Positions 26,175-43,235 of a stretch of DNA of 43,235 nucleotides are shown here, in pieces; position 1 is the stretch's first letter, and the number at the start of each line of letters is the position of its first letter. The stretch is taken from assembly GCA_023488645.1 (NCBI GenBank), contig JAMDDL010000162.1:1-43235 (forward strand). Reading direction: 5' to 3'. Source of the DNA: Actinomycetota bacterium (lineage in GTDB: Bacteria > Actinomycetota > Humimicrobiia > Humimicrobiales > Humimicrobiaceae). The translations under genes and the position numbers were made by a program. Below the pieces are notes generated by a model, which was not told the DNA's origin, ran no database searches, and saw nothing but the letters and a program-made list of their open reading frames with translations.

Positions 26175-27179
26175 TTGATTTATTCTGCTAAATTATCAGG
26201 AAAAATAATAAAACACATATTTTTAAATCGCCTTAAGGGAAATTATAAATTTCCATATGTCCTTATGCTTGAGCCTTTATTTAAATGTAACCTGAATTGC
26301 AAGGGCTGCGGGAGAATTAGAGAATATAAGGATATATTAAATAAAAGATTATCGTTAGAAGAATGCATGGATGCCGCTAAACAGGCAGGAGCACCAGTTG
26401 TTTCAATAACGGGCGGGGAGCCTCTTCTTCATCCGCAAATAAAGGAAATTATAAACTCACTCCTTGAGAAAAAATATTTTGTTTATCTCTGCACAAATGG
26501 TTTGCTTTTAAAAGATTTTTTAGATGAAATCAAGCCTGCAAATGAATTGAGTCTTGTCGTACACATTGATGGTCTGTCAAAAAATCATGACAGCTTATCA
26601 GGACAAAAAGATGTATTCTTCAAGGCAATGGAAGGTATAACTAAAGCTGTAAGGCTTAATTTTAAGGTACGAACAAACACAACAATTTATAAAAATTCAG
26701 ACATAAAGGAAATTTTAAATTTATTTTCTTTTCTGATGAAAACAGGAGTTCAAAGCGTTATGGTCTCCCCTGCTTTCAGTTATGAGCAGGTTGAAAATGA
26801 ATTGTTCTTAAATAAATTGGATACTCATAAAATATTTAAAGAAATTTACAATAATTTAAATGGTATAAAAATATATAACACTCCTCTTTATTGGGAATTT
26901 TTAACAGGAAAACGCACCCTGCAATGCACTCCATGGGCAAATCCTGCTTTTAATCCAAATGGATGGAAAAGCCCGTGCTATTTAATAACTGATTGCCATT
27001 ACTCTACTTATAGTGAATTTTTAAAAAATACGGATTGGGAAAAATATGGCACTGGAAAAGATCCGAGATGTGAAAATTGCATGATGCATAGCGGTTTTGA
27101 AGCAAGCTCAATAATGAGTATAAGGATAAATGATTTACTAAAAATAATTAAATGGAGCTTTACGGGCAGGATAAAATGA
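26175..27179 (+). CDS. hpnH: Adenosyl-hopene transferase HpnH (radical SAM)
   Basis: 334 aa. It carries YVLMLEPLFKCNLNCKGCGRI (the HpnH-type CX3CX2C context) and a Cys-rich C-terminal domain (CENCMMHSGFE). Confidence 0.8.
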   Translation: MIYSAKLSGKIIKHIFLNRLKGNYKFPYVLMLEPLFKCNLNCKGCGRIREYKDILNKRLSLEECMDAAKQAGAPVVSITGGEPLLHPQIKEIINSLLEKKYFVYLCTNGLLLKDFLDEIKPANELSLVVHIDGLSKNHDSLSGQKDVFFKAMEGITKAVRLNFKVRTNTTIYKNSDIKEILNLFSFLMKTGVQSVMVSPAFSYEQVENELFLNKLDTHKIFKEIYNNLNGIKIYNTPLYWEFLTGKRTLQCTPWANPAFNPNGWKSPCYLITDCHYSTYSEFLKNTDWEKYGTGKDPRCENCMMHSGFEASSIMSIRINDLLKIIKWSFTGRIK

Positions 27180-28198
27180 AAGTTTTACTTACAGGTGCAA
27201 CAGGTTTTATCGGAGGGAACATTGCACGCAAACTTTGTGAAAACGGTTTTGAAACTAAGGTGCTGGTAAGAGAAAACAGTAATATTTTAAACATTGAAAA
27301 ATTACCTGTAATAATTTCTTATGGTGATCTTTGCGATAAAAACTCTCTTCAAAAAGCATTAAAAGGTTGTAATGGTTTATTCCATACCGCTGCCAAGTAT
27401 TCTTTCTGGGCAAAAAACCCTGAGAGTTTCTATAAAGTAAACGTTGAGGGAACAAAAAATATAATTAATGCAGCTATTGAAGCAGGTGTTGAAAAAATAG
27501 TATATACAAGCAGTGAATCTACCATTAAGCTGCCTGGAAAGAATGAATCAAGCAATAAAAGTAATAAAAACAATCAAAAAATAAACCATTACGAGATAGA
27601 TGATATCAATTGTGTTGCTGGTGATTACAAAAAATCAAAAATTCTTGCTGAATTAGAAGTTTTAAAAATGATTGAAAAAAAATGGCCTGTAATAATAATA
27701 AATCCTACTACCCCTATAGGACCAGGGGATGTTAAACCTACTCCAACGGGCAAAATTATCCTGGATTATTTAAATAGAGAAATGCCGGCTTATGTAAATA
27801 CAGGTTTAAACATTGTGGATGTTGAAGATGTTGCCATAGGGCACATCCTTGCATTTCAAAAAGCTAAGATTGGTAAGAGATATATTATTGGAAATAAAAA
27901 TTTAACACTTAAACAAATATTTGAAATCCTCGAGAATATTACAAAAATAAAAGCTCCAAAAGTTGAAATCCCACTATGGATTGCGAAGTTACTTGGATAC
28001 ATAGATGAATTTTTTTCCGGAAAAGTTTTAAAAAAATATCCAAAAATACCTGTAGCGGCTGTTAAAGCTGCTTACAAATATAGATTCTTTGACTGTTCTA
28101 AAGATATTGAAGAACTTGGAATTGAACTTACACCTGTAGAAATATCATTTGAAAAAGCTATTAAATGGTTTAAGGACAACAGATATGTCAAAAATTGA
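27176..28198 (+). CDS. hpnA: Hopanoid-associated NAD-dependent sugar epimerase/reductase HpnA
   Basis: The start is the ATG overlapping the hpnH stop (ATGA at 27176..27179). The N-terminus is MKVLLTGATGFIGGNI, and the SDR catalytic YxxxK is YKKSK. Confidence 0.7.
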   Translation: MKVLLTGATGFIGGNIARKLCENGFETKVLVRENSNILNIEKLPVIISYGDLCDKNSLQKALKGCNGLFHTAAKYSFWAKNPESFYKVNVEGTKNIINAAIEAGVEKIVYTSSESTIKLPGKNESSNKSNKNNQKINHYEIDDINCVAGDYKKSKILAELEVLKMIEKKWPVIIINPTTPIGPGDVKPTPTGKIILDYLNREMPAYVNTGLNIVDVEDVAIGHILAFQKAKIGKRYIIGNKNLTLKQIFEILENITKIKAPKVEIPLWIAKLLGYIDEFFSGKVLKKYPKIPVAAVKAAYKYRFFDCSKDIEELGIELTPVEISFEKAIKWFKDNRYVKN

Positions 28199-30107
28199 TT
28201 TAAAAAAGCTAAATGCCTGTATATCTGATGCTAAAAATTATTTATTATCACTACAGCAAAATGAGGGATACTGGGCTGGTATCCTCGAAGCTGATGTCAG
28301 TGTAGTTGCAGGTTTTATACCACTCTTAAGGTTTTTAGGTATAAGAGACAGAGAAAAGGATAAAAAAGCTTATAATTATTTACTTGAAAGACAGAACAAT
28401 GACGGATCCTGGAGTCTTTACTTTAAAGGATCCGGAAGTCTGGATGTTACTGTTCAATCATATTTCTGTTTGAAGATGATTGGAGTATCTCCCGAAAAAG
28501 AATTCATGCAAAAAGCCAGAAATTTTATTTTAGATAGCGGTGGAATTGAAAATACAAACACTTATACTAAAATAATACTTGCTTTATTTGGTCAATATCC
28601 ATGGAATGGCCTTCCTGTAATACCGCCTGAGATAATTTTATTACCCAATTGGTTTTATATAAATATCTATGATTTTTCAAGCTGGACAAGGGCGACAATA
28701 ATGGCTTTCAGTATTATTCTCACGTTAAAACCCATATATAAAATAAGTAAGGATGAAAACATTTTTGAGTTATACAGGGATCAGAAAAATATTTACTGCG
28801 GAACAACTATCAGAAAAAGAAAATTTTTTGATCTCGAAACAATTTTTATTCTTTTTAATGAGGCACTCAAATTATGGGAAAAAATACCATCAAAAGCTAA
28901 ATTTGGAAGAAGAAATGCTTTAAAAAAAGTTGAAAAATGGATACTGGAGCACCAGGAAGAAGATGGGAGCTGGGGTGGTATAATGCTGCCATGGCTTTTT
29001 TCACTAATAGCCTTAAAATGCCTTGGTTATAAAAATGACCATCCGGTAATTAAAAAAGGTCTTGAAGGTTTGGATAATTTTGTAATTAAAGATACAAATA
29101 TAATTATCTTACAACCAGCCACCTCCCCAATCTGGGATACGGCTTGGGCAATAATTGCTATCGCCGGGTCCGGGATCAATGAAAATTATGCTGCTTTAAA
29201 AAAAGCAGCAAACTGGCTTTTAAAAAAACAGGTAAAAATTAATGGGGACTGGAAGATAAAAAATCCACATATCAATCCAGGCTGCTGGTCATTTGAGTTC
29301 TATAATAATTTCTACCCTGACATAGATGATACTGCAATAGTTTGCTATGCACTTCACTTAGTAGATTCTGATGATAATTACGCCAAAAGTGAAGCAATAA
29401 AATCAGGGATTGAATGGGTAATTAACATGCAAAATAGTAATGGCAGTTGGGCTGCTTTTGATAGAAATAACAACAAAAAGCTATTAAGGCATATCCCCTA
29501 TGCAGATTTTATAACTCCTGTTGACTTTGGAAGCCCGGACATTACTGCTCATGTTATCGCTGTGCTTGGACAATTAGGATATTCAAAAGACTTTAAACCA
29601 AATAAAAAAGCTCTAAAATACTTAATTGAGACTCAGGAAAAAGATGGAAGCTGGTATGGCAGATGGGGTGTTAATTATATTTACGGTACAAGTAAGGTTC
29701 TCCAGTCATATGAATCTTTGAAATTATTAAATAATTTTTCCGATCCTTTGCTAAATTCATCAATCAGCAAGGCATTAAGCTGGCTTGAAAAATGTCAGAA
29801 TAAAGATGGTGGTTGGGGGGAAAGCTGCCTATCCTATGAAACAGGAAAATATGTTCCCTTAGGTGAAAGCACAGCTTCGCAAACATCCTGGGCAGTTACA
29901 GGATTATTAGCTATTGATAAAAAAAATCCAGCTATTGATAAAGGTATTGACTTTCTGATTAATACACAGAATAGAAATGGAAGCTGGGATGAAGAATATT
30001 ACACTGGTGGAGGTTTTCCAGGAACATTTTATCTTAAATATGAACTGTATAAAGATTACTTTCCTTTAATAGCATTACTGAAATATAGAAATAGCCTTGA
30101 AGAATAA
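28185..30107 (+). CDS. shc: Squalene-hopene cyclase
   Basis: The catalytic DxDDTA motif reads PDIDDTAIV. There are multiple QW repeats (QNNDGSW, QEEDGSWGG, QNSNGSW, QEKDGSWYGRWG, QNKDGGWGE, QNRNGSW). ATG 28185 is preferred over TTG 28149. Confidence 0.9.
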   Translation: MSKIDLKKLNACISDAKNYLLSLQQNEGYWAGILEADVSVVAGFIPLLRFLGIRDREKDKKAYNYLLERQNNDGSWSLYFKGSGSLDVTVQSYFCLKMIGVSPEKEFMQKARNFILDSGGIENTNTYTKIILALFGQYPWNGLPVIPPEIILLPNWFYINIYDFSSWTRATIMAFSIILTLKPIYKISKDENIFELYRDQKNIYCGTTIRKRKFFDLETIFILFNEALKLWEKIPSKAKFGRRNALKKVEKWILEHQEEDGSWGGIMLPWLFSLIALKCLGYKNDHPVIKKGLEGLDNFVIKDTNIIILQPATSPIWDTAWAIIAIAGSGINENYAALKKAANWLLKKQVKINGDWKIKNPHINPGCWSFEFYNNFYPDIDDTAIVCYALHLVDSDDNYAKSEAIKSGIEWVINMQNSNGSWAAFDRNNNKKLLRHIPYADFITPVDFGSPDITAHVIAVLGQLGYSKDFKPNKKALKYLIETQEKDGSWYGRWGVNYIYGTSKVLQSYESLKLLNNFSDPLLNSSISKALSWLEKCQNKDGGWGESCLSYETGKYVPLGESTASQTSWAVTGLLAIDKKNPAIDKGIDFLINTQNRNGSWDEEYYTGGGFPGTFYLKYELYKDYFPLIALLKYRNSLEE

Positions 30108-30140
30108 TGATAAATTAAAAATATAAATGGTGAATTTTAT

Positions 30141-30620
30141 TTGAAAAAAAGACTTTTAAAAAATAAAAAAGTACAAAAAAAGATAGATGATATTAATTTT
30201 GAGGATAGAGTCCTGCTTTTACCTCACTGCTTAAGACCAAGTAAATCATGCAGCGCAAAAATGAGTAAAAATGGCCTTATCTGTAAAGATGATTGCAATA
30301 TTGATTGTTCAATAGGACATTTAAGAAAACTTGCTGAAAAATTGGGATACAAGGGTATCTGTATTGCACCAGGAGGTGCAATGACAATAAGGTTTATTAT
30401 AGAAAATCAGCCTAAGGGAATTGTGGCAATAGCCTGCAGAAAAGAGCTCGAAGAAGGTATTGAAGCAATAAATGAAATTACTAAAAAAAATAAATTAAAC
30501 GGCAATATGCCTGCAATTGCTGTTGTGCCATTAATCAAAGATGGATGTGTTGATACAATTGTTGATCTGGAAGAAGCAAAACGGATTGTCATGTTAAAAA
30601 AAGAGGTTAACAAAAAATGA
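30141..30620 (+). CDS. Cys-rich DUF116-like protein, function unknown
   Basis: 159 aa with a TTG start. Recalled DUF116-type segments are LLLPHCLRPSKSC, CNIDCSIG, IAPGG and IVAIACRKEL. I see no TM helices. Its stop overlaps the ispE start (ATGA). Confidence 0.5.
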   Translation: MKKRLLKNKKVQKKIDDINFEDRVLLLPHCLRPSKSCSAKMSKNGLICKDDCNIDCSIGHLRKLAEKLGYKGICIAPGGAMTIRFIIENQPKGIVAIACRKELEEGIEAINEITKKNKLNGNMPAIAVVPLIKDGCVDTIVDLEEAKRIVMLKKEVNKK

Positions 30621-31531
30621 TATGCGAAATTGCACCTGCAAAAATAAATCTGACACTTGAAATTTTAAATAAGAGAAATGATGGATATCATGAAATAAAA
30701 TCAGTTATGCAGACTATTGACATATGTGATGTTTTAACTTTTTGGGAAAACGAATGGATACAAGTTATCCCTGAATACAGCAATCTTCCGCCAGAGGACA
30801 CTTTGCCCGATTTTGATAATTTTAATTATTTTAGCAACAATCTTGTTTACAGAGCTGCTATGGTTTTAAGAGAATTAACCGGATATAAAGATGGGGCAGT
30901 TATTCAACTTAAAAAAAATATTCCATCTTCTGCTGGTTTAGGTGGTGGCTCAAGCGATGCGGCTGCTACACTAAAGGGTTTAAATAAATTGTGGAATTTA
31001 AAATTATCAACTAAAGAATTGGCTGAAATTGGTTCAAAAATAGGTTCTGACATACCATTTTTTATTTATGGTGGAACTTGTCTTGCAACAGGACGGGGTG
31101 AAATCATAGAAAAAATAAAACCCTTACCAAAAAAGTGGCTTGGTATTATTTTGCTTCCTTTAAAAATTCCGGAAAAGACTAAAAAAATATATTCTCATAT
31201 TACTTCAATAAACTACTCATCAGGTGAAACAACAACTGTTCTGGTAGAAAATATTAAAAATGGTCATAATGAAAATAAACTGGATCATTTTAACGGGAAA
31301 TTTGAAAATTTTATTTTTAATGTTTTTGAAATGGTATATAAAAATAGTTTTAAAGAATATAATGACTGGACTGAAAAATTAAATAATATCATTAACAAAC
31401 CATTCCATTTATCAGGTAGCGGACCATCTATATTTTATATTTCAAATTCAGAATTTGAAATTAAAGAAATAATTAAAGAGATTAAGGAAGAATTAAATTT
31501 AAATAAATATATAGCTCAGACAGTACCCTGA
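30617..31531 (+). CDS. ispE: 4-diphosphocytidyl-2-C-methyl-D-erythritol kinase
   Basis: 304 aa. The N-terminus contains APAKINLTLEIL and the GHMP kinase motif is IPSSAGLGGGSSDAAATL. Confidence 0.85.
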   Translation: MICEIAPAKINLTLEILNKRNDGYHEIKSVMQTIDICDVLTFWENEWIQVIPEYSNLPPEDTLPDFDNFNYFSNNLVYRAAMVLRELTGYKDGAVIQLKKNIPSSAGLGGGSSDAAATLKGLNKLWNLKLSTKELAEIGSKIGSDIPFFIYGGTCLATGRGEIIEKIKPLPKKWLGIILLPLKIPEKTKKIYSHITSINYSSGETTTVLVENIKNGHNENKLDHFNGKFENFIFNVFEMVYKNSFKEYNDWTEKLNNIINKPFHLSGSGPSIFYISNSEFEIKEIIKEIKEELNLNKYIAQTVP

Positions 31532-31532: not shown

Positions 31533-32102
31533 ATGACATTTAAAGAAAAAAGCAAAGCAACTAAGAATAAAATATTAGAATCAGCAATTTCAATCTTTTC
31601 TATAAAAGATTATGAAAAAACAGACATAAATGAAATATGTGAAAAAGCCTGTATCTCAAAGGGCGCATTTTATTACCATTTTAATAGCAAGCAGGATCTA
31701 TTATTAGCTCTTTTAAACCAATGGATGGATAGTATTGCAGATATTCTTGATAAAGCAGATAAAGAATCAAAGGATTTAGCTTCCACTTTAATCAATTTAC
31801 CCGATAAATTGAAATCTGCTTTTACAAAAGATCTTAATCAAATAACAATATTTCTGCAATTTTATATCAAAGGTATATCAGACCCGGCACTTAAAGATAC
31901 AGTTAAGACTTCTTATGAAAATTTTTTAGACTTCTTTTCGGGAATTATAAATAAGTCAGGTGCTAAAAAATTTAATCCAAGAAAAACTTCAAGAATACTT
32001 TTTGCGCTTACAATCGGACTTTTAACACAGGGTTTAATTGATCCTGAAGGCGAAGATTGGGAGAATTTTGCACGGGAATGTATAGAATTCTTTGTGACTT
32101 AA
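31533..32102 (+). CDS. TetR-family transcriptional regulator
   Basis: 189 aa. The N-terminal HTH region is ILESAISIFSIKDYEKTDINEICEKACISKGAFYYHFNSKQDLL. Confidence 0.8.
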   Translation: MTFKEKSKATKNKILESAISIFSIKDYEKTDINEICEKACISKGAFYYHFNSKQDLLLALLNQWMDSIADILDKADKESKDLASTLINLPDKLKSAFTKDLNQITIFLQFYIKGISDPALKDTVKTSYENFLDFFSGIINKSGAKKFNPRKTSRILFALTIGLLTQGLIDPEGEDWENFARECIEFFVT

Positions 32103-32172
32103 ATATTTAACTGCATCATCTAAAACTGCATTGCTTTTATATGATCTGCTTCTGTTGTTTACAATTATTTCC

Positions 32173-33462
32173 TTATATTTCTGCAAAGGACTCTCTTGCA
32201 GCTTCGAGTGTTGTTTTTATATCCTCTTCACTATGTGCTAAAGACATAAATAAAGTTTCAAATGGAGAAGGCGCAAAATAAACACCTCTTTTAAGCATTG
32301 ACCAGAAAAAACTGGAGTATTTATCCAGATCTGAATTAACAGCAGTATTGTAGTCTATGACCTGCTTTTCAGTAAAAAAAATAGATAGCATGCTTCCTGC
32401 ACTGTTTATTCTTACATTTATCCCTGTTTCACTTGCTGCCGCTTGCAACCCTTCCGTTAATTCTTTCGTACGGCTAAACAACTGTTCATACACTCCAGGT
32501 CTCTGTAAAATCCTGATTGTGGCTAATCCGGCACTCATCGCCAGGGGATTTCCTGAAAGGGTTCCTGCCTGATAAACTGGCCCAGTTGGTGAAATCATCT
32601 CCATAATTTCTTTTTTACCTCCATAAGCACCCACCGGCAATCCCCCGCCAATAACTTTACCAAGACATGTAATATCCGGATCTATTTTGTATAATTTTTG
32701 AGCTCCACCCAAACCCACTCTGAATCCACTCATTACCTCATCAAAAATAAGCAGTGCTCCATAGTCTTTGGTAATTTCTCTTAACCCTTCCAGAAAGCCT
32801 GAAACTGGAGGAATACATCCCATGTTGCCTGCTACCGGTTCTACTATAACTGCTGCGATATTTTCCCCTTCCTGTCTAAATATTTCATTAACCATATCAA
32901 AATTATTGTAGGAAGCAATGATTGTATTTTTTGCAACATCCGGAAGAACACCGGGGCTGATTGGTATTCCTAAAGTTAATGCACCGGATCCCGCTTTAAT
33001 TAAAAAAGAATCTGCGTGGCCATGATAGCAGCCTTCAAATTTAATTACTTTATTCTTTTTAGTATAGCCGCGGGCGAGACGCAAAGCACTCATTGTGGCC
33101 TCGGTACCGGAATTAACCATTCTGACCATCTCTATTGAAGGGACAGCATCAATAATTAACTTCGCCAGTTCAGTTTCTAATTTGGTTGGAGCACCAAAAC
33201 TTATACCTGTTGCCAAAGTATCCGTTATAGCTTCCACTACTTCAGGATGCAGATGCCCAAGTATTAATGGACCCCAGGATCCGACATAGTCAATGTATCC
33301 ATTTCCATCCACATCATAAATCTTAGAGCCTTTCCCGCTTTTTATGAACACAGGCTCTCCGCCGACACCTTTAAATGCCCTTACAGGACTGTTAACTCCT
33401 CCCGGAATACACTTTTTTGCCTGCTGGTAGTACTCACTGGATTTTTCAAATCCTTTGTGCAT
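32173..33462 (-). CDS. hemL: Glutamate-1-semialdehyde 2,1-aminomutase
   Basis: The ORF-track TTG (33477) contains the SD. The real start is ATG 33462, 5 nt after GGAGG. Motifs are [12 protein letters not shown] and the PLP-lysine region [10 protein letters not shown]. Confidence 0.9.
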
Positions 33463-33487
33463 AAAATCCTCCTTCAATTAAAGAGCA

Positions 33488-33967
33488 CTATGTAAAATAT
33501 TTTATACTGCTTTTCTTTAACTCTTCTATAGTAAACAACAACTTATATTTATCAACTTTAACAACTCTGGCTATTTTTTCAACAATCTGCCGGCATTGTT
33601 TTCTGGTTTTCCCATGTATCATGGTAAATAAATTATACTGCCAATCAGCATTGCGGGGCCGTTGATAACAATGGGAGACTTCGGCAAACTGCGTCATTAA
33701 CCGCCCTGCTTCTTCTATACGCTCATCATCAACATCCCATGCAACCATAGCATTGGCAATAAAGCCTACTTTTTTGTGGTTTAGTGTTGCTCCAAATCGT
33801 CTTATTATACCCATGGCAACATATTCTTCGATTTTATCAAGAAGCCTTTTTTCAGTTATTCCCAGCTTATCAGCAATTAATTTAAAGGGTTTCTCAACTA
33901 AAGGCAGGTCATCCTGCAATACTTTAATAATTGTAATATCTAATTCAGACAACATTTTACACTTCAT
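33488..33967 (-). CDS. ahbB: AsnC/Lrp-fold siroheme decarboxylase subunit (AhbA/AhbB, NirD/L/G/H-like)
   Basis: 159 aa with N-terminal LDITIIKVLQDDLPLVEKPFKLIADKLGITEKRLLDKI. An alternative start is ATG 33955. The A-versus-B assignment is arbitrary. Confidence 0.65.
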   Translation of the reverse strand: MKCKMLSELDITIIKVLQDDLPLVEKPFKLIADKLGITEKRLLDKIEEYVAMGIIRRFGATLNHKKVGFIANAMVAWDVDDERIEEAGRLMTQFAEVSHCYQRPRNADWQYNLFTMIHGKTRKQCRQIVEKIARVVKVDKYKLLFTIEELKKSSIKYFT

Positions 33968-34448
33968 TTACATTAAAGATGGCATTTATCTTAAAAACTT
34001 TAACAGCAGGCAAATTTATAATGTCTTCAATTCCCGTATCCCGTCTAATTTCCATAAATATACGGTTTATTGCTTCATTGTCGGGAGCAATAAGTGTAAA
34101 CCACATGTTATACTTGTGTTTCCGCAGGTAATTATGAGTTACATCAGGAATTGAATTAATAATCTCTGCAACTTCATTGATGTTTGATTTTGGGACCTTA
34201 ATAGCACACAAGGTGCTTTCATAGCCAAGCTTTTTGGAGTCAAAAATCACACCTAATCTTCTAATAATTCCCTTTTTTTTAAAGTAATTTATTTTAGAAA
34301 TTACATCCTTCTCGGATATTCCAAGTCTTCGGGCTAGCTTTAAATAGGGTCTGCTGTCAACAGGAAAATTATCCTGGATAAGGTTTAACAGTTTTCTATC
34401 AATATTATCCACTTGTTTTACACACCCCGTCTTTCCTGGTAGATGCAC
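33957..34448 (-). CDS. ahbA: AsnC/Lrp-fold siroheme decarboxylase subunit (AhbA/AhbB)
   Basis: 163 aa with IDRKLLNLIQDNFPVDSRPYLKLARRLGISEKDVISKI. It is a paralogue of the adjacent gene. GTG 34412 is a possible alternative start. Confidence 0.65.
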   Translation of the reverse strand: MHLPGKTGCVKQVDNIDRKLLNLIQDNFPVDSRPYLKLARRLGISEKDVISKINYFKKKGIIRRLGVIFDSKKLGYESTLCAIKVPKSNINEVAEIINSIPDVTHNYLRKHKYNMWFTLIAPDNEAINRIFMEIRRDTGIEDIINLPAVKVFKINAIFNVNEV

Positions 34449-35413
34449 CAGGGATCTTCCGCCATATAATCTCCGTCATTATAAAAAGCCGCTCTTGCCC
34501 TGCAGCCTCCGCATATTTTCTGGTAACGGCAAGTCCCGCAGCCACCTTTATATTCACAGGTGCGAAGTTTCTTAAACACCTTGCTGCCGGACCAGATTTC
34601 GCTAAAAGGAGTTTTTCGCACATTTCCTGCTTCAATATCCAAATATGCACATGGCTGCACCTTTCCTTCAGGACTTATTATGCAATAGGCTATTCCTGCC
34701 AGGCAGCCTCTGCCAAAGCGTAAATCCATCCCCATTTCTTTAGCGATACATATGAACTGGGGAGCACAGACAGGCTTTATTTCTATTTTTACTTCTCGCT
34801 GTTTTTCCATTAGTTTAACAAGCAAGTCTTCATATTGCCTGGCTCTTAAGGACTCTTCTTCAATATTTTTAGCCCTGCCTGCTGGTACGAGGAAAAATAT
34901 ATGATGAGCAACAGCCCCTGTTTCAACTGCAAAATCTGCAATATCTAATACTTCATGCTGGTTCCAATCCATTACAGTTGTGTGAATCTGAAAAGGCAGC
35001 TGTACTTCCCTGCAGTACTTCATGCCCCGTACTGCTTTATCCCATGCACCAGGATACCCTCTTAGCATGTCATGCTTTCTCCTTTTTATGCTGTCCAAGC
35101 TTATTCCTATTCGCATAACACCCGAATCTTTTAATTTCTGCGCTATTTTTTTAGTAATAAGGACCCCATTGGAACCCAAAACAGGTCTCAGGCTTAATTT
35201 TCTTGAATGTTCTATCAATTCATAAATATCAGAACGCATTAACGGCTCTCCACCACTGAAGATCATGATTTTAAATCCTGCTTTAGCAATTTCATCAAGT
35301 AGCAATTTACCTTCTCCGGTGGTTAATTCTTTACTGGCTTTTACTCCGGCATCTCTATAGCAATGCCTGCAAAACATATTACACTGGTTAGTGGTGTTCC
35401 AGGAAATTATCAT
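34418..35413 (-). CDS. ahbD: NirJ-family radical-SAM/SPASM enzyme, AhbD-like (haem b synthase)
   Basis: 331 aa. The CX3CX2C motif is TNQCNMFCRHCY and the C-terminal cysteines are CGTCRYQKICGGCRARA. The AhbD-versus-AhbC call is by length only. Confidence 0.6.
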   Translation of the reverse strand: MIISWNTTNQCNMFCRHCYRDAGVKASKELTTGEGKLLLDEIAKAGFKIMIFSGGEPLMRSDIYELIEHSRKLSLRPVLGSNGVLITKKIAQKLKDSGVMRIGISLDSIKRRKHDMLRGYPGAWDKAVRGMKYCREVQLPFQIHTTVMDWNQHEVLDIADFAVETGAVAHHIFFLVPAGRAKNIEEESLRARQYEDLLVKLMEKQREVKIEIKPVCAPQFICIAKEMGMDLRFGRGCLAGIAYCIISPEGKVQPCAYLDIEAGNVRKTPFSEIWSGSKVFKKLRTCEYKGGCGTCRYQKICGGCRARAAFYNDGDYMAEDPWCIYQERRGV

Positions 35414-36415
35414 TTATAACCCGCCTTCAGCAACATTTTCAACATCTTTTTTTATCCATCCTGCCACCTCTTTTGCAAAATAAGTAATAATTATATTTGC
35501 CCCGGCTCTTTTTATACTGAGCAATATCTCTTCGATAACTTTCCGTTCATCTATCCAGCCTCTCATAGCTGCAGCTTTAACCATGGAATACTCACCACTG
35601 ACATTGTAAGCTGCTACCGGGTAACCAAGCTCCTTAATTCTTCGAATTATATCTAAATAGGCAAGAGCAGGCTTAACCATAACAATATCAGCTCCTTCTT
35701 CAATATCAAGCCGGGTTTCCCTGACAGCCTCATCACTATTGGCTATATCCATCTGATAACCGAGACGGTTACCAAATCGGGGTGCAGAACCAGCTGCTTC
35801 CCTAAAAGGACCATAAAAAGCTGAAGCATATTTGGCTGAATAAGCCATAATAGGAATATTAATAAAGGAGTTGGCATCCAAAGCTTTTCTTATCGACCCG
35901 ACCATGCCATCCATCATAGCAGAAGGGGCAACCATATCAGCACCGGCATAAGCATGTGAAACAGCTATTTTAGCAAGCAATTCTAAAGTCGGATCATTTA
36001 ACACTTCACCGTCACTGTTTATAACTCCACAATGTCCATGGATAGTAAATTCACACAGACAAACATCTGTAATGACTGCTATATCCGGGAAATTCTTTTT
36101 AATTGCTCTGACAGCATTCTGAACAACTCCCTGATCAGAATATGCCTGCGTACCTGATTCATCCTTTTGCCCGGGAATGCCAAACAGAAGTACTGCAGGA
36201 ATGCCGACTTTTATTGCTCCCTCAACTTCCTTCAATAAATTGTCACAAGAAAGCTGGTAGATACCTGGCATTGAAATTACAGGATTTTTTATATTTTTAC
36301 CCTCCGCTACAAACAGAGGATATACTAAATTATTGATTTGAAGTGAACTTTCACGCACAATTTTACGCAACTTTTCATTTTGTCTTATCCTTCTTAGTCT
36401 TATTACTGGAAACAA
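35414..36415 (-). CDS. hemB: Porphobilinogen synthase (Zn-type)
   Basis: The ORF-track start (36568) runs 122 nt into the upstream gene. TTG 36415, 8 nt after a perfect AGGAGG, gives [23 protein letters not shown], the canonical HemB N-terminus. The Zn-binding Cys triad is [11 protein letters not shown]. Confidence 0.9.
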
Positions 36416-36446
36416 TTTTTTTACCTCCTGTACTTTATAAAACTGA

Positions 36447-37625
36447 CTAAACAATTTCTTCATCTGACAAGTAACAAGCTGGATCAGATCCCCAGAAATC
36501 ACCCGTAATTGCTTCTGCTCTGGTTCTACAGTTGCCGTTACAAACTTCCAGCCACTTGCATGCAGCACATCTGCCTTTAAGCAGGTGCTTCCTGTTTTTC
36601 AGGCCGGCTAATATCGGGTTACCAGTGTCGGTCCATATCTGGCCAAAAGGTCTTTCTCTTACATTCCCAAAAGTATAGTGCTGACTAAATTGGTCGGGGT
36701 GTACATATCCCAGGCTATCCACATTTGCAAAAGCCATACCGGAGCGGTTGCCTCCATTTATTTTCATCAATTCATAAACTTCTTGTGCACAGCCGGGATT
36801 AGTTTCTTTCAGTTTCAGGTATAGATAAATTGCATCAGCATGATTATCCACTGTCAATATTTCCTTATCTAAACCCCGGCGATGGAAGTCTATGGTCCTC
36901 TCAATTATAATATCCATTACCTGCCGTGACTCTTCATGGGTAATATCCTCATTAATCATTTCACTTCCCCTGCCGGAATAAACCAGATGATAAAAACATA
37001 CCCTGTTGATATTCTCTTTCTCTATCAGGTCGAAAATATTATTTAACTCTTTAAAATTATGACGGTTAATAGTAAAGCGCAGCCCTACCTGTAAGCCCGC
37101 GCCAACACAATTTTCTATTCCACGGAGCGCAGTATTAAAAGCACCCTTTTTGCCTCTAAATTTATCATTTGTTTCCTGCAAACCATCCAGGCTGATACCA
37201 ACATAGTCGACTCCTATTCCCTTAAGCCTTTCACTCACTTTTTTTGTAATTAAAATGCCATTAGTCGAAATAGTAGATCTGATACCACTATTTACAGCCT
37301 TCTCAACCAGTTTGAAGATATCTTCTCTTATTAATGGCTCTCCTCCAGAAAACAGCAGAACGGGCACTTTAAAATCAGATAAATCTTTAATGAATTTTAC
37401 CGCCTCTTCATGTGTCATCTCGCCTTCATACTTTTTATTTTCTGAATTTAAGTAACAGTGCATGCACTTCAAATTGCACGTTCTGGTAACATTCCAGACC
37501 ACTACAGGCCCCTTTCCTTCACTTGTGCCATTTACCTGGTTTTTTGAATTATGGGAATACCTGAGGCTATCGCCAAAATTTTTAGATCCAATTAAAAATT
37601 TCGTTGCACTTATAATGTTTGTCAC
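36447..37625 (-). CDS. ahbC: NirJ-family radical-SAM/SPASM enzyme, AhbC-like (Fe-coproporphyrin III synthase)
   Basis: 392 aa. The GTG start overlaps the cobA-hemD stop (GTGA). Motifs are [12 protein letters not shown] and C-terminal [18 protein letters not shown]. Confidence 0.6.
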
Positions 37626-39163
37626 ACCTCTCTAATATGTCTAATATACGACGGGCGGATAATCGCATCTATCAACCCTTCAATAGTATATTCAGCTGCC
37701 TCCACATCAACTTTGATTCCCATCTCTCTGGCAGTAGCAGTAGTGATTGGGCCAATTGATGCAACACATACACTATTTAACAGTGATGCTAACTCTCTTT
37801 GAGGCAACCTTAACAACTCTACAAAGTTTTGAACAGTAGATGAACTGGTAAAAGTAATGATTTGGATCTCATTATTTAACATCATTTGATGAAGCAAATC
37901 AGCATTGGCATCACTTTTTTTTGTTTTATAAGCTACAACATCATCAACTTGCGCACCTATCTCTTTAAGAGTATCAGGCAGAATTTTACGGGCATTATCT
38001 GATCTTGGCAGCAATATTTTATCATCACTTTTAATTTTATGCTTTAAGCCTGTGATAATAGCTTCCGCCCGATATTCATCCGGAACATAATCTGCTATTA
38101 ATCCTTTTTCTTCCAGAGCCTGCTTTGTCTTCGGCCCAATAGCACAAAGAGAAGCATTTTGAAGCACCCGAACATCTTTACCCAGCTTAAATAGCCTTTT
38201 AAAAAAATACTGTACTCCATTAACGCTGGTAAAAATAATCCAGTTATACTGATTTACCTTCATAATAGCCTTATCAAGCCCGGAATTGTCAGCTTCTGAA
38301 ATCTTAATAGTTGGGAACTCATAAGGTTCTCCGCCAAGCTCTTCAATTCTTTTTGAAAACTCGCCAGCCTGGTTTTCCGGCCTGGTCACCAGCACTCTTT
38401 TCCCGAATAAGGGTTTACTTTCAAACCATTTCAATTTTTCCCGCATTTTTACTACTTTCCCAACAATAATAACTGCAGGATTTTTAAACATTGCTTTATC
38501 CCTTTTAACTATTATATTTTCAAGTGTCCCGACAAGAGTTTGCTGCCGGGGTCTGGTTCCCCAACTGATCAGAGCAATAGGAGTATCTTTGGGACATTCG
38601 TTTTCAATCAGCTTATCAACAATTTCAGGAAGATTTCCCATACCCATCAAAAAGACAAGCGTCCCGATATCAGTAGATATTTTATCCCATTGGATATTTG
38701 AATTCCCCTTGGCAGGATCTTCATTTCCAGTAATTACAATAAAAGATGAGGCAATGTTGCGGTGAGTAACAGGAATGCCTGCATATGCCGGAACTGCTGT
38801 CGCAGAAGTTATCCCGGGAACAATTTCAAAAGGAATATCATTTTCTTTTAAAAACTCTGCTTCCTCACCTCCACGTCCAAATATGAACGGGTCACCTCCC
38901 TTTAGCCGGACTACTATTTTGCCTTCTTTTGCTTTATCAACCAGTAAGTTATTAATTTCATGCTGTTTTAAAACCTGACGGTTTGGACCTTTACCTGCAA
39001 AAATAAGCTCAACATCAGATTTTGCATGTGTTAAAAGATTTTGTCCAATAAGACGATCATAAATAATAACATCAGCTTTTTGTATACATTCCAATCCTTT
39101 TACAGTAATTAAACCCGGATCACCCGGACCTGCCCCAACCAGATAAACCATGGATTTATACAT
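37622..39163 (-). CDS. cobA-hemD: Fused uroporphyrinogen-III C-methyltransferase / uroporphyrinogen-III synthase
   Basis: 513 aa. The N-terminal SUMT domain carries VYLVGAGPGDPGLITVKG and VVRLKGGDPFIFGRGGEE. The C-terminal roughly 250 aa are HemD-like. Confidence 0.85.
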   Translation of the reverse strand: MYKSMVYLVGAGPGDPGLITVKGLECIQKADVIIYDRLIGQNLLTHAKSDVELIFAGKGPNRQVLKQHEINNLLVDKAKEGKIVVRLKGGDPFIFGRGGEEAEFLKENDIPFEIVPGITSATAVPAYAGIPVTHRNIASSFIVITGNEDPAKGNSNIQWDKISTDIGTLVFLMGMGNLPEIVDKLIENECPKDTPIALISWGTRPRQQTLVGTLENIIVKRDKAMFKNPAVIIVGKVVKMREKLKWFESKPLFGKRVLVTRPENQAGEFSKRIEELGGEPYEFPTIKISEADNSGLDKAIMKVNQYNWIIFTSVNGVQYFFKRLFKLGKDVRVLQNASLCAIGPKTKQALEEKGLIADYVPDEYRAEAIITGLKHKIKSDDKILLPRSDNARKILPDTLKEIGAQVDDVVAYKTKKSDANADLLHQMMLNNEIQIITFTSSSTVQNFVELLRLPQRELASLLNSVCVASIGPITTATAREMGIKVDVEAAEYTIEGLIDAIIRPSYIRHIREV

Positions 39164-39184
39164 ATTTTTTTAATACCTCTTAAA

Positions 39185-40108
39185 TTAATTCCTGATTTGT
39201 TTTAATATTTCTCCTGCACCCTGATCTATTAAACTACTTGCCAATCTCTGGCCCAGCACTTCAGGAAAATCCGGACTGCCGCTATCCACGGCTTTTAATA
39301 TCCTTGTACCATCAAGACTGCCAATCAATCCCCTTAGCATCAGCTTATCATCAACAACCAGACCCAATGCTCCAACCGGTGTCTGGCAGCCTCCCCCTAA
39401 AGTTCGAAGCATAGCTCTTTCAGCTCTGACAGCAGAATCGGTGTTACTGTGATTTAAGACTGCAACAAGATCCAGTATCCCTTTATCACTTTGTCTGATT
39501 TCTATTCCCAACGCGCCCTGCCCGATAGCTGGTAAAAATTCTTCCGGGTTAAGTCTTTCTGTTATTTTATCACCCCAGCCAAGACGCTCTATACCTGCAG
39601 CAGCCAATACCACAGCCTGATAATCCTGTTCGGCAAATTTCCGTATCCTTGTATTTAAGTTGCCGCAGATATCTTTAATTATAAAATCCTGCCTCATGTT
39701 GAGTAACTGCGAACGTCTCCGTAAACTGCTTGTTCCTACAACAGCTCCTTTGGGTAAATCCAGGAGCTTTACACCACTTTTGGAAATTACTACGTCGGCA
39801 GGGTCATGACGTTCTGTAATAGCGCCAATAATTAAACCAACTGGCAGAGAAGTTGGTAAGTCTTTCATGCTATGAACAGCAATGTCAATTTCTTTATTTA
39901 ATAGTGCTATTTCCAATTCTCTGGTAAAGAGCGCCTTGTCGTTTATCTTATCGAGGGCTGTATTAAGCATCCTGTCGCCTTGTGTTTTTATGGTTTTTAT
40001 TTCCATACTTAATTTAGGATATCGCAGCTGCAAAATTCTCTTTACCCAACTGGCCTGCCAAAGTGCAAGTAAACTTTCCCTGGTTCCTATAATTATTTTT
40101 CTAACCAT
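39185..40108 (-). CDS. hemC: Hydroxymethylbilane synthase (porphobilinogen deaminase)
   Basis: 307 aa. Motifs are IIIGTRESLLALWQA, AVHSMKDLP and the cofactor Cys region GGCQTPVG. Confidence 0.9.
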   Translation of the reverse strand: MVRKIIIGTRESLLALWQASWVKRILQLRYPKLSMEIKTIKTQGDRMLNTALDKINDKALFTRELEIALLNKEIDIAVHSMKDLPTSLPVGLIIGAITERHDPADVVISKSGVKLLDLPKGAVVGTSSLRRRSQLLNMRQDFIIKDICGNLNTRIRKFAEQDYQAVVLAAAGIERLGWGDKITERLNPEEFLPAIGQGALGIEIRQSDKGILDLVAVLNHSNTDSAVRAERAMLRTLGGGCQTPVGALGLVVDDKLMLRGLIGSLDGTRILKAVDSGSPDFPEVLGQRLASSLIDQGAGEILKQIRN

Positions 40109-40174
40109 TAATTTTTCCTTTTTTCAACAGCAAATTTCATTTTTTAACAATGGTTCCTCTTAATTAACGATGTT

Positions 40175-41476
40175 CTACTTAAGATTATTTTCCGGTTTTT
40201 CCCAATGACTTTCAACTTCCAGATTAAACAGGTTTTTGGTAAGCTCCAAGTAAAGATGTCCCCTGCTTGTACCGGCATAGTTCTTTAAATTAACTACAGG
40301 ATCATGCAGCAATGAATTTACAATAGAACCAGCCATAGAAGAAATTGCCCTTCTTTGCCTTGAAGATAAATCACCTGATTTATTAAAAGTCCTGGTTATT
40401 TCCCTTTCTTTGATTTTTTTACCTTTATCCTTTAACGCCATAATTGTTGGAATTACAAAGAGCGAATTAATCCAATTTAAAAATTTGTCCATTTCTTCTT
40501 CAAGAATCTTTTCAGCTTTTACTGCCTCATTTTTTCGCTCTTCCAGGTTTTTATCAACTACTTGCTCAAGATCATCTATATCCAGCAGGCTTACTCCCGG
40601 TAAATTTCTTATTTGGGGATCTATATCTCTGGGCACAGCAATATCTATAATGAAAATTTTGCGGTTATTTCTATTTAACATTACTTTTTCCATTTGTTCC
40701 ATACTTAGAATATGTTTGGATGAAGATGTACAGCTAATTACTATATCTGCTATTTCTAAACATTCTGTTAAGTTTTCAAATTTGACTGCCCTGCCGTCAA
40801 ATTGTTTTGCTAAATCCTGGGCTTTTTGATAAGAGCGGTTTGAAATAAGGATATTTTTAATCCCGCTGGCTATTAAATGTTTTGCAACCAGATTGCTTAT
40901 TTTGCCTGTGCCAATAATCAGGGCAGAATAGCCGCTCAGGTCACCAAAAATCTGCTTTGCTTTTTCAACTGCTGCATAACCTATAGACACTGAATTCTTA
41001 TCAATATCTGTTTCAGTTCTCACCCTTTTGCCAACTGTTATCGCCCGCTGAAAAAGGATGTTTAAAACTGCGTTGCTTGCACCGCACTCGCAGGCAATCT
41101 GGTACGCCTCTCTAACCTGCCCAAGAATTTGAGATTCACCAAGAACCATCGAGTCTAATCCGGCAGCTACTCTGAACAGGTGCCTGACAGCATTTTCACA
41201 TGCAGGAGAATAAAAATAATGGCGCTTATCTGAAAAATCTATCTTAGTATATTCTTGTATAAAATTATGAATGCTTTTTATTCCAGCTTCTTCATCAGTC
41301 GTGGCAGCGTAAATTTCCATTCTATTGCATGTAGATAAGACGACACAACCAGAAATAGCATTGCATTTTTTAATTTCTGTCAGAATATATGGAATTTCAT
41401 GTCTGGGAAAAGCCAGTTTTTCCCTCATCTCTAAAATAGCTGTTTTATGATTTATTCCGACAACAATGATAAACAT
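40175..41476 (-). CDS. hemA: Glutamyl-tRNA reductase
   Basis: 433 aa. Motifs are VGINHKTAILEMREKLAF, the catalytic LSTCNRMEIY and the NADPH loop IIGTGKIS. Confidence 0.9.
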   Translation of the reverse strand: MFIIVVGINHKTAILEMREKLAFPRHEIPYILTEIKKCNAISGCVVLSTCNRMEIYAATTDEEAGIKSIHNFIQEYTKIDFSDKRHYFYSPACENAVRHLFRVAAGLDSMVLGESQILGQVREAYQIACECGASNAVLNILFQRAITVGKRVRTETDIDKNSVSIGYAAVEKAKQIFGDLSGYSALIIGTGKISNLVAKHLIASGIKNILISNRSYQKAQDLAKQFDGRAVKFENLTECLEIADIVISCTSSSKHILSMEQMEKVMLNRNNRKIFIIDIAVPRDIDPQIRNLPGVSLLDIDDLEQVVDKNLEERKNEAVKAEKILEEEMDKFLNWINSLFVIPTIMALKDKGKKIKEREITRTFNKSGDLSSRQRRAISSMAGSIVNSLLHDPVVNLKNYAGTSRGHLYLELTKNLFNLEVESHWEKPENNLK

Positions 41477-42093
41477 TCTTCAACCCGTTCTTCTGCCAAA
41501 TAGTCTTTCCCGTCTTTTAGCAATTGTAATATGTCTGAATCTATCAAACGCTGAAAAATTTCATTTCTTACAGCAGGGTCATCACATTCTGCCAGTACCT
41601 GCTGCCTTACCCGGCCCATGATTTCCAAAAACTTTTCATATTCTTTCCCGAACTGTTTTTCCAGTTCCATTCTCAATCTAACAGCAAGCAAAGGACTTTT
41701 GCCTCCGGTAGATATGCTTATTACCAAATCTCCCCGTCGGATTACAGATGGAATAAAAAAGTTACACAAATCCGGTGAATCCACAACATTTACCGGAATT
41801 CCCCTGGCCAGGCAATCCTCAGCAACCTTTCTATTTACATCTTCACTATCAGCTGCACTGATTACAAGCATGGCTCCTTCAAGATCACCGGTCTGGTAGT
41901 TATTCTGATGATATTCAATTTCCCCGGCAATGACCATTCCTGCAACTTTTTTATTACACTCGGGGCTCACTACCATAACCCTTGCGCCGCATTCTAACAG
42001 GTTCTTTATTTTTCTTTCAGCAACATCTCCGCCACCAACGACCAGGCATTTTTGGCCGGTTATGTTTAAATAAACAGGATACAGTTTTTTCAT
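41452..42093 (-). CDS. sirC: Precorrin-2 dehydrogenase / sirohydrochlorin ferrochelatase (SirC / CysG-N / Met8 type)
   Basis: 213 aa. The N-terminus is YPVYLNITGQKCLVVGGGDVAERKIKNLLECGARVMVVSPE. Confidence 0.8.
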   Translation of the reverse strand: MKKLYPVYLNITGQKCLVVGGGDVAERKIKNLLECGARVMVVSPECNKKVAGMVIAGEIEYHQNNYQTGDLEGAMLVISAADSEDVNRKVAEDCLARGIPVNVVDSPDLCNFFIPSVIRRGDLVISISTGGKSPLLAVRLRMELEKQFGKEYEKFLEIMGRVRQQVLAECDDPAVRNEIFQRLIDSDILQLLKDGKDYLAEERVEECLSLLSE

Positions 42094-42307
42094 TACACTA
42101 TCTTATCATAGTATTATAGCCAGAGAATTTAGTAAAAAATCTATCAATTATTCTACATCGATAATAACTTTTATAATATAAATTTTTACAGATAGCAAAT
42201 TGCTTTATTTTAATATCAATAATAAATTATAAGTTCCTTTTTTCCCTATCAAATCATCTTTTAATTAATCTTTTGTCATTTTTATATTAGCTATGTATCC
42301 TGACAAC

Positions 42308-42342
42308 AAAAAAATTACACCCTTTAAGCCGAAGAGCTGTAA
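42308..42342 (-). terminator. Expression-platform terminator of riboswitch D
   Basis: Identical to terminator C: UUACAGCUCUU-cggcuua-AAGGGUGUAA followed by U7. Confidence 0.6.
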
Positions 42343-42349
42343 CATCATA

Positions 42350-42493
42350 TCTATTTGCAGGTTTCCTGACTTACGGGACTTTGCTCTTCGCCTTCCCGGC
42401 TTATTTAAAAGCTAGTGGCATTTTGAAGAGCACACACCCGATTACAGTGGCGGTACCGCTCCAGTTTTTCACTGGATTCCCTTTTCAAACAGA
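42350..42493 (-). promoter_or_regulatory. Cobalamin riboswitch D (aptamer), leader of the sirC-hemA...hemL operon
   Basis: The minus strand reads UCUGUUUG(P1)AAAAGGGAAUCCAGUGAAAAACUGGAGCGGUACCGCCACUGUAAUCGGGUGUG..AAAAUGCCACUAGC..CCGGGAAGGCGAAGAGCAAAGUCCCGUAAGUCAGGAAACCUGCAAAUAGA(P1'). It has 6 differences from copy C in about 144 nt. Confidence 0.9.
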
Positions 42494-42533
42494 CGGATAC
42501 TTAAATTTCAAATAAACATAGAATGTTTTACTT

Positions 42534-42561
42534 AATATAGCAGGAAATTAAATAATTTCAA
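42534..42561 (-). promoter_or_regulatory. Candidate promoter for riboswitch D
   Basis: The minus strand reads TTGAAA-N16-TATATT, about 35 nt upstream of P1. Confidence 0.3.
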
Positions 42562-42822
42562 TAAGCAAGCAAAAATATTATAAGAATGGAGACAAAGAAG
42601 TAATAGAACCAAATATTTACTTTAATAAATGTAAATTCTGTGCGATAAATGAGCAAATTTTCTGCACAGCAATTGGCGGATATGAATCAACAAAAATGGT
42701 GGATTTATAATTAATGCTTTCGAATAATTTATCACAATCAAATATTTTATCGATATACCTTTACTATATTATTTATCCTATTCTTTATAGTATTTAAAAA
42801 AATTAATAGTTAAAAAACAGTT

Positions 42823-42878
42823 AAAAAAATTAATAGCCCTTAATAATTAAATAATAATATCACAGGGCTATTAATTTT
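42823..42878 (-). terminator. Intrinsic terminator after the ferredoxin gene (bidirectional shape)
   Basis: TTAATAGCCCT-23 nt-AGGGCTATTAA is a perfect 11-bp stem. It is flanked by A7 (giving U7 on the minus-strand RNA) and by TTTT. Confidence 0.6.
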
Positions 42879-42922
42879 AAAAAATAGTCTTTAATCTATT
42901 CTTAAAAATATGAAGTAGAAAT

Positions 42923-43114
42923 TTAATCAACTAAGATAGCTTCGGATGGACAGCTCTCTACGGCTTCCTGAATACATTCCTCATCATAATCGTCGTAGTC
43001 TGTTTTGATAACCTCTGCGATATCCTTTTCTTCATTTAATTTGAAAATATCAGGACATGTTTCTTCACAAAGCCCGCATCCCGTGCAAAGGTCTTCATCA
43101 ATTCTAACTTCCAT
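42923..43114 (-). CDS. Small single-cluster ferredoxin
   Basis: 63 aa and acidic. It has CTGCGLCEETCP plus a distal CP (ESCPSEAI). Confidence 0.8.
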   Translation of the reverse strand: MEVRIDEDLCTGCGLCEETCPDIFKLNEEKDIAEVIKTDYDDYDEECIQEAVESCPSEAILVD

Positions 43115-43221
43115 TTAGTTCCTTTCGTTTTTTTAATAAATAAAACCAAAATTAAAACCAAAATAAGCATAGACCTTAATTTATATGTAATATACATAAT
43201 TTTTTAATGCAATTCAAATAA

Positions 43222-43235
43222 AGATCGGAAGAGCG
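43222..43235. other. Illumina TruSeq adapter remnant at the contig end
   Basis: The terminal 14 nt, AGATCGGAAGAGCG, match the start of the standard adapter AGATCGGAAGAGCGTCGTGTAGGGAAAGAGTGT. Confidence 0.85.

Follow-up and report, generated by a model that had tools for sequence, protein, structure and literature searches.

A predicted transcription-terminating cobalamin riboswitch heads a sirohaem-dependent haem b operon in an Actinomycetota contig

We analyzed a 43,235 nt contig from an Actinomycetota bacterium of the family Humimicrobiaceae (JAMDDL010000162.1, GenBank assembly GCA_023488645.1; hereafter the window), in which Rfam identifies four cobalamin riboswitches (A-D), the last of them upstream of a ten-gene haem operon running from sirC to hemL. 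We consider it reasonably probable, judging from the sequence, that riboswitch D works as a cobalamin OFF switch by terminating transcription in the 5' leader of this operon, exerting B12 feedback on precursor supply with the haem branch carried along. What we infer is how the switch responds to ligand, how strongly it represses, and why this would be of physiological use. By comparison with related loci, it is the riboswitch that is unusual and the operon that is ordinary, making the arrangement a lineage-specific variant of a known regulon assembled from standard components.

The aptamer of riboswitch D (42339-42528, minus strand, like the rest of the leader and the operon) aligns to the full length of Rfam model RF00174 (model positions 1-189) with a score of 103.1 bits against a gathering score of 31.5 (E = 7e-25), and scores 176.7 bits against a custom covariance model, R1. 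The B12 box is intact, and in the RF00174 alignment the box and the core junction nucleotides match the consensus (GCCACU...AGUCAGGAAACCUGC and GGGAA...GGUG/AGUGAAAA). Immediately 5' of the aptamer lies a predicted sigma-70-type promoter (42534-42561; TTGAAA, 16 nt, TGcTATATT) with 10 of 12 matches and an extended -10 TG, which was the top promoter-like site in a promoter scan of 31900-43235 and is retained both in a paralogous cassette carrying riboswitch C and in L089, a contig from another metagenome described below. With its own promoter and terminator, and with the sirC start codon (ATG at 42093) 215 nt downstream of the terminator, riboswitch D bears out the claim of an earlier note on this DNA that a cobalamin riboswitch heads the haem operon. 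The extent given there, 32173-42493, holds on the operon side but not at its upper end, where the aptamer continues for about 35 nt further on its 5' side.

Folding energies and covariation across three copies of the cassette (in riboswitches C and D and in L089) indicate that the expression platform of riboswitch D contains a mutually exclusive terminator and antiterminator. The predicted intrinsic terminator (42308-42343, -7.1 kcal/mol) consists of a hairpin, GUUACA-G-CUCUU paired with AAGGG-UGUAAU, and a U-tract; the hairpin spans 42343-42314, with 11 bp, one bulged G and a 7-nt loop, and the U run extends to 42308, matching the terminator previously placed at 42308-42342. The terminator is identical in riboswitch C and, save for the bulged base, in L089, and the U-tract is invariant across the three copies. 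A switching strand, CGAAGAGC (42383-42390), can pair either with GCUCUUC in the aptamer (42431-42425) or with GCUCUUCG, the left arm of the terminator (42337-42330). The antiterminator duplex is predicted at -16.6 kcal/mol versus -13.1 kcal/mol for the aptamer-internal helix, the two global states of the leader's 3' segment lie within 2 kcal/mol of each other, and the minimum free energy fold of the whole leader is aptamer plus terminator. The aptamer helix, the antiterminator and the terminator arm covary stepwise at three interacting positions, which read A/U/A (L089), G/U/G (riboswitch C) and G/C/G (riboswitch D). Since the varying base of the terminator arm is the bulged one, it is constrained by antiterminator pairing only. 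Such a pattern is the signature of a maintained transcriptional OFF switch, and from the alignment the switch looks functional. In the same window cobO-cobN, a canonical target of B12 regulation, is preceded by an identical expression platform.

In the model we propose, transcription would start from the promoter at 42561-42534. With a cobamide bound, CGAAGAGC (42390-42383) would be locked in the aptamer helix, and the hairpin and U-tract (42343-42308) would terminate transcription; with no ligand, the same strand would pair with the left arm of the terminator as an antiterminator, and polymerase would read into the operon. Since CbiK uses sirohydrochlorin as its substrate, the selective logic would be end-product feedback on the supply of tetrapyrrole precursor; the ahb genes, having been fused into the operon beforehand, would be repressed as passengers. 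B12 levels would then probably throttle haem precursor and haem synthesis together, with haem under B12 sufficiency supplied by leaky read-through or a weak internal promoter. The earlier note had offered two options, of which the first, that sufficient corrinoid turns off the shared trunk along with the haem branch, is partly supported and is the reading that the anatomy of the locus best supports: the promoter, the covarying terminator and antiterminator, and the coupled genes favor it, and it is qualified by its restriction to one lineage, by the situation in Alkaliphilus, and by a candidate promoter in the spacer.

The ten genes, each identified by NCBIfam models, lie on the minus strand in the order read previously: sirC, hemA, hemC, cobA/hemD, nirJ1 (AhbC-like), hemB, nirJ2 (AhbD-like), ahbA, ahbB, hemL. 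The first of them (41452-42093; TIGR01470, 181 bits) encodes a SirC-like precorrin-2 dehydrogenase of the CysG N-terminal type, possibly also a ferrochelatase, which finds its best match in the PDB, at 92 bits, in the N-terminal module of CysG. It is followed by genes for glutamyl-tRNA reductase (hemA, 40175-41476; TIGR01035, 478 bits), hydroxymethylbilane synthase (hemC, 39185-40108; TIGR00212, 338 bits), and a fusion of uroporphyrinogen-III C-methyltransferase with uroporphyrinogen-III synthase (cobA/hemD, 37622-39163), in which residues 5-241 match TIGR01469 (313 bits) and residues 254-503 match HemD models (156 bits). The nirJ1 gene (36447-37625) encodes a radical S-adenosylmethionine (SAM)/SPASM protein, a putative didecarboxysirohaem deacetylase (TIGR04054, 702.6 bits, cutoff 650), and nirJ2 (34418-35413) encodes a second such protein, a putative haem b synthase (TIGR04055, 592 bits, cutoff 500). 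Between them lies hemB, for porphobilinogen synthase (35414-36568; NF006762, 502 bits); the model aligns only from residue 53, and the true start is probably near 36418-36463 (the hemB gene call in a related locus, L001, is 349 aa). The two subunits of sirohaem decarboxylase, alpha (ahbA, 33957-34448; NF040708, 176.8 bits, cutoff 140) and beta (ahbB, 33488-33967; NF040707, 194.7 bits, cutoff 125), are adjacent paralogous AsnC/Lrp-like proteins that both exceed NCBIfam equivalog cutoffs. The operon ends with hemL, for glutamate-1-semialdehyde 2,1-aminomutase (32173-33477; NF000818, 680 bits; TIGR00713, 644 bits).

The junctions noted earlier were all present on checking the sequence: a 25-nt overlap of sirC and hemA, a GTGA overlap of cobA/hemD and nirJ1, a TAA-ATG abutment of hemB and nirJ2 (0 nt), and a 31-nt overlap of nirJ2 and ahbA. 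Genes that overlap or abut in this way would be translationally coupled or close-set, consistent with one transcript. The operon thus encodes the trunk enzymes HemA, HemL, HemB, HemC, HemD, CobA and SirC together with AhbA, AhbB and the AhbC- and AhbD-like enzymes; whether the pathway is complete would depend on the ferrochelatase step, which may be performed by a bifunctional SirC-like protein (as in CysG-B/Met8p) or by the CbiK encoded at 1053-1934.

To judge how widespread the pairing of riboswitch and operon is, we gathered 80 genomic loci by NirJ1 alignment, mapped their architecture by tblastn, and surveyed 90 related loci for cobalamin riboswitches using Rfam and R1. The identical ten-gene order occurs in Peptococcaceae bacterium CEB3, Pelotomaculum, Desulforamulus, Desulfovirgula, Desulforudis and several metagenome-assembled genomes. 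No cobalamin riboswitch was found ahead of sirC in 20 other genomes with the fused operon, including the three closest relatives; Rfam found none before sirC in 15 loci with the hem trunk and ahb genes (13 of them fused), and Desulfitispora, C. formicaceticum and D. hafniense were likewise negative. Over 1.39 Mb of related loci, R1 matched only the four copies in the window and two others, in L003 and L076. A riboswitch before the operon as the ancestral state is ruled out by the Rfam and R1 scans of the 90 loci. On this distribution, the ancestral haem operon had no riboswitch and the coupling was acquired recently, within a restricted lineage, and the late gain makes the ahb genes look like passengers rather than the target of regulation.

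The same arrangement of promoter, aptamer, terminator, spacer and sirC was found in L089, a contig from a different metagenome (JGI) retrieved by a SirC metagenome scan, whose SirC is 96 % identical to that of the window. Upstream of the -35 element the DNA is unrelated, carrying a YhhQ-like gene in L089 and a ferredoxin gene in the window. Finding the same junction in an independent contig with unrelated upstream context argues that the riboswitch-sirC junction is real and not an assembly artefact; from these two contigs, it is common to at least two lineages and restricted to a narrow clade.

Riboswitch D has a close copy elsewhere in the window. Riboswitch C (aptamer 21993-22182; RF00174, 90.3 bits) belongs to a paralogous promoter-riboswitch-terminator cassette (approximately 21955-22215, minus strand) before a broken cobO and cobN. 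Cassettes C and D are 91 % identical over ~260 nt, from the -35 element through the aptamer, terminator and U-tract to GTTGTCA (42561-42301 in D), while their flanks are unrelated (about 36 % identity). The L089 cassette is 81-83 % identical to both, and its downstream spacer is shared with D only. The simplest cassette tree, ((C,D),L089), implies that the position before the hem operon is older than the split from L089, and that a later duplication or gene conversion inside this genome would account for the closeness of C and D. A second, near-identical pair consists of riboswitches A (2129-2306, minus strand, before cbiK) and B (7560-7737, plus strand, before btuC/D/F-like transporter genes), which match at 97-100 % identity along some 160 nt (2318-2158 and 7548-7708) and have unrelated flanks. 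The two pairs indicate that riboswitch cassettes were duplicated at least twice in this genome. A mobile promoter-riboswitch-terminator cassette would have come to sit before a pre-existing operon in a narrow lineage.

The genomic context of the riboswitch-less operons bears on what the pathway makes. The three closest relatives (80-82 % NirJ1 identity) and Desulfitispora carry the operon 30-180 nt after futalosine-route menaquinone genes, and Desulfitobacterium hafniense carries it after the cytochrome-c maturation genes ResB/CcsA. The nearest named relatives by NirJ1 are anaerobic Clostridia (Desulfitispora at 74 % identity, Desulfitobacterium at about 69 %). Exact matches to the window's proteins came from Logan metagenome contigs only (SRR22746112 and SRR22746119), and Dehalobacter and Desulfitobacterium were rejected as the source of the DNA. 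AhbA matches solved structures of sirohaem decarboxylase (4CZD_A/4UN1, D. desulfuricans AhbA, E = 3e-43) and NirDL (4CH7/4CZC, E = 5e-44). NirJ1 carries the CxxxCxxC motif as CNLKCMHC at residue 50 and C-terminal cysteines at 353, 356, 362, 366 and 384; NirJ2 carries it as CNMFCRHC at residue 11, with a Cys-rich SPASM region (cysteines at 237-323), and the cysteines are invariant in alignment A1. Together, the menaquinone and cytochrome-c contexts, the AhbAB matches and the intact cysteines support haem b synthesis, and on this evidence the operon is the standard haem b operon of anaerobic Bacillota, leading through the C5 trunk to sirohydrochlorin and sirohaem and then through AhbAB, the AhbC-like and the AhbD-like enzymes. 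The same gene set was interpreted as the Ahb haem route in Dehalobacter (PMC4751268). Haem d1 biosynthesis was considered and is out, given the two NirJ paralogues with AhbAB, the absence of nirS, nirF and nirN from the window, and the relatives that tie the operon to cytochrome-c maturation. The NirJ names stem historically from haem d1 biosynthesis.

Three other explanations of the locus were weighed. The second option of the earlier note was that the NirJ1, NirJ2 and AhbAB-like proteins act on a cobalt- or corrinoid-related tetrapyrrole, in which case the riboswitch would control a purely B12-related operon. The operon does sit in a corrinoid island with four cobalamin riboswitches, and in a ranking of profile hidden Markov model scores, used as a proxy for a tree, NirJ1 falls below the trusted cutoff of the AhbC model TIGR04546 (535.9 bits, cutoff 650) and NirJ2 below that of the AhbD model TIGR04545 (360.2 bits, cutoff 500). 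We know of no biochemically characterized Firmicute NirJ1 or NirJ2, and a literature search for biochemical data on the Bacillota NirJ1/NirJ2 clade found none, so that function is read from genomic context. AhbC is nonetheless the next-best family for NirJ1 after its own model, ahead of NirJ (427 bits), as AhbD is for NirJ2 (NirJ, 176 bits). Against a corrinoid substrate stand orthologues of 58-82 % identity, in the same order, in operons that lack the riboswitch and lie beside ResB/CcsA or menaquinone genes; AhbA and AhbB pass equivalog cutoffs, with solved sirohaem decarboxylases matching at E ~ 1e-43, and the Dehalobacter interpretation points the same way. We regard this option as close to negligible. 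It is also very improbable, in our estimate, that riboswitch D is a decaying relic or a mis-assembled insertion without a regulatory role. Several observations would fit such a relic, and some of them also weigh against the switch that we propose. The terminator hairpin is modest (-7.1 kcal/mol), its z-score versus shuffled sequences is not significant, and it is not among the sites listed by a pattern scan of the region. The leader differs by 15-19 % from that of L089 (aptamer ~19 %, spacer ~15 %; 42094-42528 versus L089:1598-2023), far exceeding neighboring synonymous sites: the adjacent sirC/hemA coding DNA differs by 1.9 %, and by 2.9 % at third codon positions. The assembly is also not pristine, as the window ends in an Illumina adapter remnant (43222-43235, plus strand, AGATCGGAAGAGCG), a contig-end artefact. 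The change in divergence is sharp, about 45 nt before the sirC ATG, and the fast divergence of the leader may reflect recombination close to the start of sirC or conversion between the paralogous cassettes. A relic is harder to reconcile with an aptamer of 103 bits in which every core motif is intact, with compensatory changes that keep both alternative pairings, with a terminator and U-tract invariant in three copies, and with the same junction in the independent JGI contig. The survey itself is open to the objection that R1, used for most of it, is narrow; on the 25 loci where both models were run, its results were exactly those of Rfam, down to a weak hit of 38 bits, which makes its negatives credible, not absolute.

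The remaining alternative is dual control, in which a native B12-independent promoter in the 215-nt spacer between terminator and sirC (42094-42307) would supply haem constitutively, the riboswitch-led promoter would give a B12-repressible boost when corrinoid synthesis needs precursor, and haem would be essentially uncoupled from B12. The spacer is AT-rich and holds a perfect TATAAT at 42118-42113, 20 nt before the sirC ATG, so that a B12-independent promoter is possible, which also weighs against our proposal. L089 retains a TATAAT, 11 nt ahead of the ATG, and 19 nt just upstream, ATTTTTTACTAAATTCTCT, are invariant between the window and L089, while the remaining spacer is ~15 % different (the spacer as a whole is ~85 % identical). 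In comparison with the sirC upstream regions of the closest riboswitch-less relatives (L083-L085), only the proximal ~55 nt align, and weakly. On the other side, the TATAAT lacks a recognizable -35: an acceptable one at 16-18 nt and a TGn extension are both absent, the promoter scan gave no qualifying site in the spacer, and promoter-like sites overall are not commoner than in shuffled sequence. The window's other three riboswitches have comparably long spacers between aptamer and start codon (about 195-345 nt). The nearest relatives, with gaps of 30-180 nt, may co-transcribe the operon with the upstream mqn genes, and no terminator-like site was found in the two relatives' spacers that were scanned, L083 and L084. 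We consider dual control unlikely, and continue with the OFF switch in the leader as our reading.

Other features of the spacer are recorded here in their own right. No further RNA element was detected in it by Rfam at E <= 1. There is no clear Shine-Dalgarno sequence ahead of the sirC ATG in the window or in L089, and riboswitch-less relatives carry AAAGGTG at that position. An 8-nt tandem repeat, CTATAATA/CTATGATA, lies just before the sirC ATG (42106-42121) and is present in a single copy in L089 (about 1995-2010).

Control of the trunk by B12 in haem-pathway organisms is not unique to the window and occurs independently in Alkaliphilus. In Alkaliphilus transvaalensis (L003:8968-9735, minus strand) a cobalamin riboswitch precedes cbiX-hemA-sirC-hemC-cobA/hemD-hemB-hemL, and in A. 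metalliredigens QYMF (L092:4826-4998, minus strand) one lies directly upstream of hemA. As in the window, a B12 riboswitch thus stands before the shared trunk in organisms that carry nirJ1-nirJ2-ahbA-ahbB. In both Alkaliphilus genomes, however, these four genes form a separate riboswitch-less unit, divergently oriented in L003 and 5 kb distant in L092, the order of the trunk genes is different, and the riboswitches are not close copies of riboswitch D. From this arrangement, B12 in Alkaliphilus probably throttles a precursor supply on which haem also draws. The premise of the earlier note, which limits B12 control of the trunk to organisms making no haem, is therefore too narrow. What appears specific to the window is that the dedicated haem branch shares a riboswitch-led transcript with the trunk, because the cassette was placed before an already fused operon.

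Rodionov, Vitreschak and colleagues reportedly described in 2003 B12 elements that regulate cbi operons including hemA/L/B/C/D in Clostridia and relatives. Those systems share with the window B12 feedback on the tetrapyrrole trunk, but there the hem genes stand among cbi genes serving corrinoid synthesis, whereas the operon in the window is free of cbi genes and four of its ten genes are haem-specific. Our literature search found no paper linking a cobalamin riboswitch to the alternative, sirohaem-dependent haem pathway. The operon of anaerobic Bacillota (Desulfitobacterium, Pelotomaculum, Desulforamulus, Desulforudis, Desulfitispora and others) has the same order, 58-82 % NirJ1 identity and the same predicted route from glutamyl-tRNA to haem b via sirohaem, but lacks a cobalamin riboswitch before sirC (0 of 20 loci) and is preceded by menaquinone or cytochrome-c maturation genes. 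For the riboswitch, the closest parallel that we discuss is the Peptococcaceae member Dehalobacter restrictus, in which five terminator-type riboswitches (Cbl-RS1 to -RS5) sit on corrinoid synthesis, salvage and transport operons, and cyanocobalamin represses the downstream genes in vivo by a few-fold to 346-fold (PMC4285132). The two systems have in common RF00174, the promoter-aptamer-terminator design, and several copies before corrinoid synthesis, transport, and CobN/chelatase operons; they differ in that haem, nirJ and ahb genes are not mentioned for D. restrictus, while the unit regulated in the window is the trunk plus the Ahb haem branch (PMC4285132).

The rest of the window includes an island of corrinoid synthesis and salvage genes (cbiK, cbiD, cbiC, cbiA, btuCDF-like genes and cobN). 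Within it, cbiA-cbiC-cbiD (3755-7063, minus strand) has no riboswitch of its own at the Rfam gathering threshold, the four riboswitches controlling neighboring units. Riboswitch C is followed by a broken cobO, cobN, an ABC-2 transporter, a ChlI/D-like chelatase subunit and a radical SAM gene. The cobO gene, for ATP:corrinoid adenosyltransferase (21177-21649, minus strand), starts at ATG 21649 and stops after ~60 codons, with the remainder in an open reading frame at 21177-21491, which from the sequence is a frameshifted pseudogene or an assembly error. Genes at 12176-21085 (minus strand) encode a CobN-type chelatase of 1259 aa, a ChlI/D-like AAA+/VWA subunit, the ABC-2 transporter, a small ferredoxin-like open reading frame and the radical SAM protein, a set resembling 'operon-2' of D. 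restrictus (PMC4285132) in an apparently anaerobic host.

The corrinoid island is separated from the haem operon by a hopanoid/isoprenoid cluster (22590-31531, plus strand) and a TetR gene. The cluster encodes a DRL-type DXR-like oxidoreductase, a polyprenyl synthase, an FMN-dependent dehydrogenase (IDI-2-like), an HpnH-like radical SAM protein with DUF3463, an epimerase, a squalene-hopene cyclase, a DUF116 protein and a GHMP kinase, and is notable for a Clostridia-like anaerobe. Six Bacillota genomes with the riboswitch-less ten-gene haem operon share a conserved synteny, a tRNA-Sec gene on the opposite strand ~1.2-1.7 kb upstream of the operon (L007:4128-4219, L024:3526-3619, L064:4068-4161, L065:4321-4414, L072:3988-4081 and L076:4282-4375).

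If the switch works as predicted, one RNA element would let B12 set the production of haem. Beyond the switch itself, we tentatively put forward, with somewhat less than even confidence, that haem b synthesis is subordinate to cobamide status in this lineage, a self-copying riboswitch cassette having captured both the trunk and the Ahb branch in a B12-represses-haem hierarchy that is absent from all the relatives examined. If true, this would be a case from nature of a regulon rewired when a riboswitch cassette is copied and pasted, and it would illustrate how a regulon can grow: a self-contained module of ~260 nt is duplicated in a single genome, and one of the copies ends up before a pre-existing operon; the riboswitch-less operon in close relatives provides a natural before-and-after comparison. 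B12 availability could then limit haem-dependent respiration in such anaerobes, which would be relevant to their enrichment and cultivation and to the interpretation of metatranscriptomes from corrinoid-sharing communities.

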